A stretch of DNA of 10,754 nucleotides. Origin: a virus (taxonomy: Duplodnaviria > Heunggongvirae > Uroviricota > Caudoviricetes). The DNA lies in the IMG/VR virus record IMGVR_UViG_2671180710_000029. One strand, written 5' to 3'. Each line of letters starts with the position of its first letter. Position 1 is the first letter of the stretch. Position numbers and translations under genes: made by a program. This document shows, piece after piece, positions 4,096 to 7,000 of this stretch. The notes under the pieces are model-generated. The model had not been told where the DNA came from and searched no databases. It saw nothing but the letters and a program-made list of their open reading frames with translations.

Positions 4096-7000
4096 TCAGC
4101 TGATACTGATACCTGCTGTGGATTTCTTCATCACCACAACCAGCAGATCGCTGATACTGGTTGTTGGTGTCCAGTTATTCGCTCCTGATGAAGATACGGT
4201 GAATGTCAGTGTCAGTGTCCCCTGTCCGGCAGGCATATCTATAACTGAAGAAAATACGCCCTGAGCATCCGTCGTGGACTGATTAAAAATCTCCTGACCA
4301 TTGCGGGTCACTCTTAACCGGCAGGTTGAATACCAGTATGACTGTTGGTTATTACTGTTGAAATTCTCATGCTTACCACCGCGGAATAACACTGGCGGTA
4401 TCATGACCTGCCGGTCAAATTTCTGATCATCACTGATTCTTACCGTGATGGTGCCGCTGGCATAACTGTTCGTGCGGGGGAAAGACTTGCTGACCGTTTT
4501 GACAATATCGCCTTCAATCTGGTTGGCTGACAGTTTCCCCTTAATCTGACAGTTCTCATTAATCGTGACGTTGTTGAGCGTCCCTGAGTTCGCATTCACA
4601 CTGCCACTGATATCCGCATTTTTAGCGGTCAGCTTTCCGTCTGATGTCAGGGAAAATACCGGAGGACTGCCACCGCTGGTAATGGTGGGTGCCGTCAGGC
4701 GTTTCAGGAACACGTCGTTCATGAATATCTGGTTGCCCTGCGCCACAAACATCGGCGTTTCATTCCCGTTTGCCGGGTCAATAAACGCGATACGGTTAGC
4801 GGCAACCAGAAACTGGCTCAGTTTGCCTTCCTCCGTGTCCTCCATACTGAGGCCAATACCCGCGACATAATGTTTGCCGTCTTTGGTCTGCTCAATTTTG
4901 ACAGCCCACATGGCATTCCATTTATCGTTGGCATCCTTCCACTCTTTCGAAAACTCATCCAGTCTGCTGGCGTTATCCTCCGTCAGATCGACTTTTTCCA
5001 GCAGCTCTTTACCGAGATGGGATTCGGTTATCTTGCCTTTGAAAAAATCCAGGTAACCTTCCGCATCATCGCTCGCCCGACCGACGGACTCCACGAATGC
5101 CGATTTGCCAACGGTGTTCACACTGCGGATATAAAAGTAATAATCATGGCCCGGTTTAATATTGATACTGGCGGCTATCCAGTACAGCCCCGTGCCAAGG
5201 TAGCGGGCTGTGGTTTCAACCTGCCTGATATCGGTAATCCGCGTTTCCGAGAACCAGAACTCAAATTGTACCGTCGGATCATAAACCGCAAGATGCGGCG
5301 TGGCGGTTATCTGAAAATATCCCGGTGTCAGCTCAATCCGAGACGGCGCTGCCGGTGCGGCAATCCGGAACGATACCGATGCCGGATCGCCCTGCTGTCC
5401 CCACGCATTTACCGCCCGGACAGTCAGCCTGTAGTTCCCCAGCGCCAGTTGCGTGAAGCGGTATGTGGTTTCCGTCGTCCTTGCCGTACTGACCAGCCGC
5501 TCACTGCCATCGTCCGCTGCCACGGTCAGGCGAAGCAGGAAGCTCACCCCCTTCACCACCTTCGGCGTGTCCCAGCGCGCCAGCACCTGATATTCCCCGC
5601 TGTCTGCGGTGACTTCGACAGTCAGGTGCTGCACCGCGGGCGGCGTGACGCCATTCACCGTGCCGCTCAAGTCGCCGTCAAAGTGCGCCCCGTTATCCAC
5701 GATGGCTTCTTTTTCGGGTACATGCTGCACGGCGGTAATAGCATACGTGCCGTCGTCGTTCTCACGGATACTCACGCAGCGGAACAGGCGCTGGCGCAAC
5801 GTCGGCAACTTCAGCCCCCATACGCTGTATCCGGCAACGCCGTCAGGAACACGGCTCACTTTTACCTTCACGCCGTCGGTGACGGACTGGACCTCCACGC
5901 TGACCGGATTGCCACTTCCGTCAACCAGGCTTATCAGCGTGGTACCGGAGGATGGCAGCGTGATTTCACGGTCGAGCGTCAGCGTCCGGGTCTGGCTGTT
6001 CACCGCCAGCACGCGTCCGCCGATGCTGATCCCCGCATAGTCATCATCGCAGATTTCAATAACATCACCCGGCACATGGCGAAGCCCTTCGGCACCCACG
6101 CTGAAATCCACGGTCTGCGTCTCCAGCAGCTCCGTTTTAATCAGCCACAGCCCGGCGCGGTGTGCCTGCCCCCGGCTGGTACAGCCAAAGGCATCCATCT
6201 TCGTGACGTTACGACCGTAACGGAGAATGGCCTGCATGTCCTCCACAAGCTCTGTCGCCGTCTCCCAGCCGTTATCCGGGTCAATCCAGTTCACCTCAAC
6301 GGCATTATGGCGGTCCTTGAGGGCGCTGAAGCTGTAGCGGAACGGCGCGCCATCATCCGGCATCACCACATTACTGCGGTTATAGGTCCACACCTTATCC
6401 GACGGTCGGTCCTGCACGAACGTCAGCGTCTGCCCGTTCCATACCGGCATACAGCGCATCGCCGAGCAGAAATCGCTGAGAACATCCCACGCCTTACGCT
6501 GTGTGGTCAGGTAGGCATTACAGGTGATGCGCGGCTCCGTGCCGCCAAAGCCGTCCGGCACTGACTGGTCGCAGTACTGGCCGATGACATACAGCGCCCA
6601 TTTATCCACATCCGCCGCACCAAGACGTTTCCCCATGCCGTAGCGCGGATGGGTCAGCATATCCCACAGACACCAGGCCATGTTGTTGCTGTATGCCGGT
6701 TTAAACGTTCCGTCCCAGATACCGCTGTATTGCCGCGTCTGCGGGTTATAATTCGACGGCACCTGCAGAATACGCCCGCGCAGATGATAATTACGGCTCA
6801 CCTGCTGGCTGCCGAACTGCTCCGAGTCCACCTGCACGCCGACCAGTGCCGTGTTCGGGTAGCACTGTTTCACATCGATAATTTCGGTGTATGACGACCA
6901 GAGCGTTTTGTTCTGCAGCTGGTCTGTGGTGCTGTCCGGCGTCATCCTGCGCATCCGGATACTGAACGGGCGCGGCGGCAGGTTATCCACCACCACCGAG

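Follow-up and report, generated by a model that had tools for sequence, protein, structure and literature searches.

The J gene in the 10,754-nt stretch of DNA analysed here (hereafter named the window) very probably encodes a natural chimera (we put the probability at about 0.9), in which a lambda-type body, comprising amino acids 1 to ~957, has been joined by homologous recombination to a C-terminal cassette of the A8/phi330 type that would dock on the porin OmpC. A lambda-like prophage with a J tip of the OmpC type is ordinary and was already known, since the same cassette has previously been engineered, assayed and structurally solved. Exchanges of the J C-terminus that alter the receptor have been classical since the lambda h434 hybrids (PMC11101478), and the window provides another instance of this well-known type of exchange, with nothing new in kind. 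By this identification, an odd J end yields a definite prediction of the receptor: infection by the prophage should proceed via OmpC and, as a consequence, the host range of the prophage should track OmpC variants, and not the expression of the maltose regulon.

Gene content of the window and the body of the J protein

The window covers the tail-tip part of an E. coli lambdoid prophage, since its gene block is collinear with those of lambda and 2H10 and matches E. coli prophages at 99.9–100%. These matches are prophages annotated in complete genomes of E. coli, such as the one that adjoins ompT in strain JNEC-KY174; in this strain and in FHI_NMBU_11 the match is at 100% identity. The ORF list and the Pfam domains gave the order H', M, L, K, I, J, lom, stf and tfa on the minus strand (Table 1), and the position of J within this order was confirmed by the ORFs and by blastn, whose matches are collinear with an annotated E. 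coli prophage as well as with lambda and 2H10.

Table 1. Genes of the window and segments of the J gene, in window coordinates.
Feature	Position	Strand	Basis or remark
H (3' part only)		-	ORF list and Pfam
M	9571–9900	-	ORF list and Pfam
L	8873–9571	-	ORF list and Pfam
K	8124–8867	-	ORF list and Pfam
I	7555–8226	-	ORF list and Pfam
J, tail tip attachment / central tail fibre protein (1132 aa, intact ORF)	4096–7494	-	Translation and Pfam
Lambda-like J body, aa 1–957 (hub, FNIII/Ig domains, alpha-helical shaft, most of the central straight fibre)	4624–7494	-	
Crossover interval, J nt 2872–2909, aa 958–970	4586–4623	-	Both "parents" match there
Swapped tip cassette, aa 971–1132 (last beta-layers of the straight fibre and Ig-like RBD)	4096–4585	-	A8/phi330 type
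lom (Ail/Lom outer-membrane protein)	3430–4029	-	Pfam Ail_Lom, E = 1e-119
stf (side tail fibre)	339–3371	-	ORF list and Pfam
tfa (short)	55–339	-	ORF list and Pfam

Two features of the genes around J were noted. A terminator-like element, consisting of an 8-bp GC-rich hairpin followed by TTTTTATT, was found by consensus scan on the minus strand (window 4059–4078). The hairpin lies 18 nt past the J stop codon and ahead of lom, and phage 21 has an annotated terminator at the equivalent position. At window position 131, inside tfa, exactly 300 nt (100 codons, in frame) are missing with respect to every closely matching E. coli genome, and given this gap the tfa product is of 94 amino acids instead of 194. 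Genomes that are otherwise 100% identical span 11,054 nt, compared with the 10,754 nt of the window, and the best matches to window 40–230 were all split in two pieces, spanning 491 nt. Either the source genome truly carries a deletion here or the gap arose as an artefact when the window was constructed. Since tfa lacks 100 codons, side-fibre formation by the prophage may be abnormal; J is unaffected.

The protein encoded by the J gene is a member of the gpJ family by its domains, synteny and identity. Pfam detected FNIII-A_GpJ, Phage-tail_3, Ig_J, Ig_J_second, Phage_Tail_Tip (residues 846–972) and Ig_GpJ_C (residues 1008–1132), and the gpJ domain set is complete, with PF24801, PF13550, PF24421, PF24489, PF09327 and PF12421 all over their cut-offs. 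It shares with lambda J (NP_040600; PDB 8IYK, 8XCJ and 8XCK) its length of 1132 amino acids, its domain architecture and residues 1–957, which are 96.7% identical (ungapped comparison with the protein of NC_001416). Over residues 971–1132 the identity falls to 44%, and the body near to lambda with a divergent tip, as described in a first reading made from the sequence only, was thus corroborated; the peptides quoted in that reading are present in the J translation. The two proteins differ in receptor, which is LamB for lambda J, whereas the tip encoded in the window is, judged from its sequence, of the OmpC type. At the nucleotide level the J body is 95–96% identical to lambda and to lambda h434 and ~72% identical to phi330 (738 mismatches in 2602 positions).

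Residues 902–933 of J (window 4696–4791, minus strand), located in the straight fibre, are the same as in lambda, with F924 kept. The matching lambda peptide activates the Gifsy-1 abortive-infection nuclease HepS, with F924 as the trigger residue (PMC13043305), and sensitivity to HepS is therefore predicted for this phage. A few residues further on, at positions 943, 946 and 951 (window ~4642–4668), the window protein has S, V and S as in the h434 hybrid, while lambda, 2H10 and A8 have N, A and P. Lying immediately before the crossover, this patch may point to additional small-scale mosaicism around the junction.

Location of the crossover and mosaic structure of J

The J gene of the window was compared at the nucleotide level with five reference J genes, and breakpoints were sought with a maximum chi-square scan. 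In ungapped windows of 50 amino acids, identity to lambda J collapses from residue ~951 onwards (78%, 40%, 12% and 4%). When gaps were allowed, identity was 46% over the last 167 amino acids and 40% over the receptor-binding domain (RBD, residues 997–1132); over the last 150 residues, where more than 95% identity had been set as the mark against a divergent tip, it was clearly lower. The maximum chi-square break against lambda was found at J nt 2921 (window 4574), with 146 mismatches in the 2920 positions on its left (5.0%) and 236 in the 499 positions on its right (47.3%; Fisher p = 3.5e-120), a divergence far beyond chance. The window is 95.6% identical to lambda in nucleotides up to window 4538–4585, where similarity is lost; it is lost in the same region for the lambda h434 hybrid, with the break at window 4537.

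The opposite pattern was obtained with phi330. In this case the maximum chi-square break was at J nt 2872, and from this position to the stop codon the two genes are 98.9% identical (6 mismatches in 528 positions), with zero mismatches in nt 2872–3025. The mismatches to phi330 end after nt 2871 and the dense mismatches to lambda start at nt 2910–2921, which leaves between them the crossover interval of Table 1. This interval is within the conserved stretch of the AKNADISG region, at the end of the central straight fibre and of the Pfam Phage_Tail_Tip domain and before the Ig-like RBD. The stretch is invariant across the six aligned J proteins but for one residue (S965N, in phage 21), and a short way downstream comes the boundary between lambda and 434 sequence (J nt ~2958, aa ~986). 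The divergent segment had been placed at window 4096–4560 (aa 979–1132) in the sequence-only reading. These coordinates do cover divergent sequence, but they start about 25–60 nt inside it, the true edge being at ~4586–4623.

The non-lambda block is not confined to the J gene. It comprises the J tip, the intergenic region and most of lom (window ~3558–4585), and similarity to lambda is back at ~3557; the Lom protein is 45% identical in amino acids to lambda Lom. The segment at window 2944–4134, with lom, is 94% identical in nucleotides to the lambda h434 hybrid, whereas no nucleotide similarity to this hybrid was found across window 4135–4537; relative to the hybrid, therefore, the J tip alone differs and lom is 94% identical. 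Identity to phi330 is 92% over a longer segment (window 2944–4887), which reaches from the end of J across the intergenic DNA and lom into stf, of which it takes in the first ~430 nt. From these identities, the RBD and lom may travel together.

One question is whether the tip diverged gradually, by accelerated point mutation under host-range selection and without recombination. Host-range selection does concentrate substitutions in the J C-terminus (PMC11336670), and the tip is still homologous to that of lambda, with 46% identity and the same Ig-like Pfam domain. However, the mismatch to lambda rises from 5% to 47% inside about 40 nt, the tip is almost that of phi330 despite a J body of ~72% identity, and the divergent block runs on into lom. 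Local mutation pressure on the RBD cannot give this pattern, and gradual divergence is therefore extremely improbable. Exchange of the tip as a module, which had also been suggested from the sequence, accounts for the sharp break and for a phi330-identical tip on a body with only ~72% identity. Cassette exchange predicts the same tip on different bodies, and this tip does occur on another J body in phi330 and also in Stx1a-converting phages. The J tip on a lambda-like body is the usual multi-parent mosaic of lambdoid phages.

Phage 21 J shows a second block, at nt ~2400–2900 (window 4595–5094; 28–77% nucleotide identity), in which it differs from both the window and lambda. It covers the region of the helical shaft and the straight fibre and explains the 28 extra residues of the phage 21 protein. 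Since this block lies upstream of the tip, mosaicism in J is not confined to the RBD.

Identity of the tip cassette and its predicted receptor

A PDB sequence search identified a chain named 'A8 gpJ 713' (entries 9WCA and 9WCB) that is 100% identical to the window J over residues 952–1132; upstream of residue 952 this chain shows scattered lambda-like differences (e.g. S943N, V946A and S951P). Entry 9WCB, searched with E. coli OmpC, contains three chains of 'A8 gpJ 713' and three chains of 'Outer membrane porin C', and it is thus, by its chain composition, a complex of the A8-type RBD with OmpC. The tip DNA of the window, including cccgcacgaacagttatgcc and gagaatttcaacagtaataac, was also found in the GpJ A8 sequence of the supplement of PMC11338833, allowing for OCR noise. 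The link to OmpC rests on the chain composition of 9WCB together with PMC11338833.

In that work (Brödel et al., Nature 2024), gpJ C-termini of natural E. coli phages were fused to lambda gpJ, and A8 was obtained by screening for the use of another receptor in a recipient deleted for lamB (PMC11338833). [quoted passage not shown] The A8 gpJ and the window J have in common a lambda-type body, the same AKNADISG junction region and an identical tip, both in protein and in DNA, and the receptor of A8 is OmpC. They differ in origin: A8 was engineered as a chimera on an Ur-lambda chassis, and the allele of the window is that of a natural prophage. The natural crossover (aa 958–970) and the engineered lambda/tip junction of A8 are in the same near-invariant stretch. 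The suggestion, made from the sequence, that the prophage might use a receptor other than that of lambda finds support in this identity to an RBD that functions in cells deleted for lamB and depends on OmpC; among the receptors that had been listed (OmpC, FhuA and others), the evidence points to OmpC.

Independent evidence is given by phi330 (vB_EcoS_phi330, PV189401), an OmpC-dependent siphophage of EHEC (PMC12502783). Over residues 971–1132 the window is identical to phi330 in 160 of 162 residues, to phage 21 in 82%, to 434 in 47% and to lambda in 44%. The phi330 protein differs from that of the window in its annotated length (1042 aa) and in its J body, and the phage belongs to the genus Pankowvirus; in the tip the substitutions are only N1009S and S1010T. 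Both are located in the TNSY loop (T918-Y921 in the numbering of the authors), which is stated as not predicted to contact OmpC (PMC12502783). phi330 forms plaques on all of the 54 Keio outer-membrane-protein mutants tested but the ompC mutant, and Plac-ompC rescues the latter (PMC12502783).

The RBD of the window is, by its identity or near-identity to these two domains of published OmpC dependence (PMC11338833, PMC12502783), assigned from sequence as an OmpC-binding domain of the A8/phi330 type. Other assignments were considered and rejected. A LamB-type RBD like that of lambda has 40% identity to the window over ~997–1132, a region that includes the contact loops L1–L4, with indels. An OmpC-type RBD like that of 434 was discarded on its 42% identity. 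The 434 J tip (lambda h434 hybrids, OM418627), the classical OmpC binder, resembles the case described here in that a lambda body carries a swapped C-terminal cassette and is retargeted to OmpC, but it belongs to a distinct lineage of OmpC binders, and conservation of the contact loops is lacking (PMC12502783). The phage 21-type RBD, with 81–82% identity and 29 substitutions in residues 971–1132, is not the same allele and was classified as a sister type.

Phage 21 J (OL657228) is the nearest distinct tip family, and its residues I1025 and V1026 correspond to I997 and V998 of the window. It differs from the window J in its length (1160 aa), with a longer divergent upstream segment, and in its native receptor, which is reported to be LamB; I1025T alone adds the use of OmpC (PMC11336670). 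Two hairpins, including ANNWTP, were placed by AlphaFold3 at the OmpC interface of phi330 (PMC12502783), and both are kept in phage 21. Therefore, it might be argued that the tip of the window has diverged but still binds LamB, as that of phage 21 does, the change of sequence providing alternative binding of the same receptor: a tip with 81–82% identity and with identical hairpins has LamB as its reported native receptor (PMC11336670). Against this, the RBD of the window is 100% identical to that of A8, which is functional in a lamB deletion strain and is OmpC-dependent, phi330 fails on the ompC knockout alone among the 54 Keio mutants, and 29 differences separate the window from phage 21 in residues 971–1132. 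Use of LamB as the receptor is accordingly very improbable, and the assignment of the window tip to OmpC is not weakened by phage 21, because the identity of its RBD is to A8.

The comparison with phage 21 indicates that receptor choice is labile in this tip family, since a tip with 81–82% identity and the same hairpins is reported to use LamB; evidently, few residues decide it. A change of the I1025T type, pre-installed in the window, was considered and rejected, as the ancestral I997 is kept. OmpC use by the window J is for this reason not explained by the destabilising route of I1025T. As a tentative proposal, to which we give somewhat less than an even chance in its joint form, the AKNADISG-region stretch would be a conserved 'splice site' that moves RBD cassettes, often with lom, between diverged J lineages, and the switch from LamB to OmpC could be mapped to few of the 29 differences between A8 and phage 21, outside the hairpins predicted by AlphaFold3.

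A further question is whether the specificity of the tip is dual or broader, with OmpC as the main receptor and LamB, OmpF or OmpK36-like porins of other enterobacteria also usable. A8 particles deliver DNA also into a K. pneumoniae ST258 strain, and 21 of 23 E. coli OmpC variants support delivery with A8, 1A2 or both (PMC11338833); the tip of phage 21 reaches the use of LamB, OmpC and OmpF by few mutations (PMC11336670). However, phi330 forms no plaques on the ompC knockout, which retains LamB and OmpF, and A8 needed OmpC to be supplied in the lamB ompC double-deletion cells. Such a broader range is unlikely, although less so than a LamB-binding tip, and OmpC is preferred as the receptor of the window J.

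The mechanism that we propose would begin with homologous recombination in the conserved stretch (aa ~958–970), by which the lambda body would be joined to the foreign C-terminal cassette. At the tail tip the cassette, as a trimer, would dock onto the trimeric porin OmpC and not onto the maltoporin LamB. By analogy with lambda, this docking would trigger the opening of the tail tip and the ejection of the DNA. In lambda, the trimeric RBD puts its bottom loops into the porin trimer and the bottom of the RBD spreads; the signal runs up the straight fibre and the helical shaft, the tip opens and the DNA is ejected (PMC11101478). The window J keeps the signalling machinery in its lambda form, only the last layers of the fibre and the RBD being replaced. 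Judging from the identity of the tip, virions of this particular prophage presumably use OmpC, and the signalling that follows binding would, by the same analogy, be that of lambda.

Distribution of the tip cassette and the side tail fibre

The A8/phi330-type tip is a common allele. In the phage collection it was found at at least 99% protein identity in 19 records and at 95–99% in 25 more, and the phages with at least 95% identity include Stx1a- and Stx2a-converting phages, Turner, 2H10 and PhiR30_1. The other tips of this collection group into separate classes, at about 81%, 78%, 60% and 43–45%. The tip of PhiR30_1 is identical to that of the window; no receptor is given for this phage in the SNIPE papers that use the ΦR panel of Brenes & Laub. 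About 1,500 records of complete E. coli genomes carry the 490-nt tip at 95% identity or more, and ~2,400 E. coli genomes have a match that spans 80% or more of this query, with identities between ~76% and 100%. Use of OmpC is relevant to the spread of lambdoid phages and of Stx phages in the gut; lamB is often down-regulated in this environment (PMC11338833).

With respect to the side tail fibre, BLASTP aligned the C-terminus of Stf (window 342–1241, last 300 aa, minus strand) to that of lambda Stf (orf-314) with 68% identity. The alignment has 245 columns over the last 214 residues and includes the His-rich GAHxHS repeats. The Stf of Ur-lambda is reported to bind OmpC (PMC11338833), and from this resemblance the side fibres and the J tip of the prophage might both be aimed at OmpC. 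Competition between the side fibre and J for OmpC is what Brödel et al. engineered around (PMC11338833).
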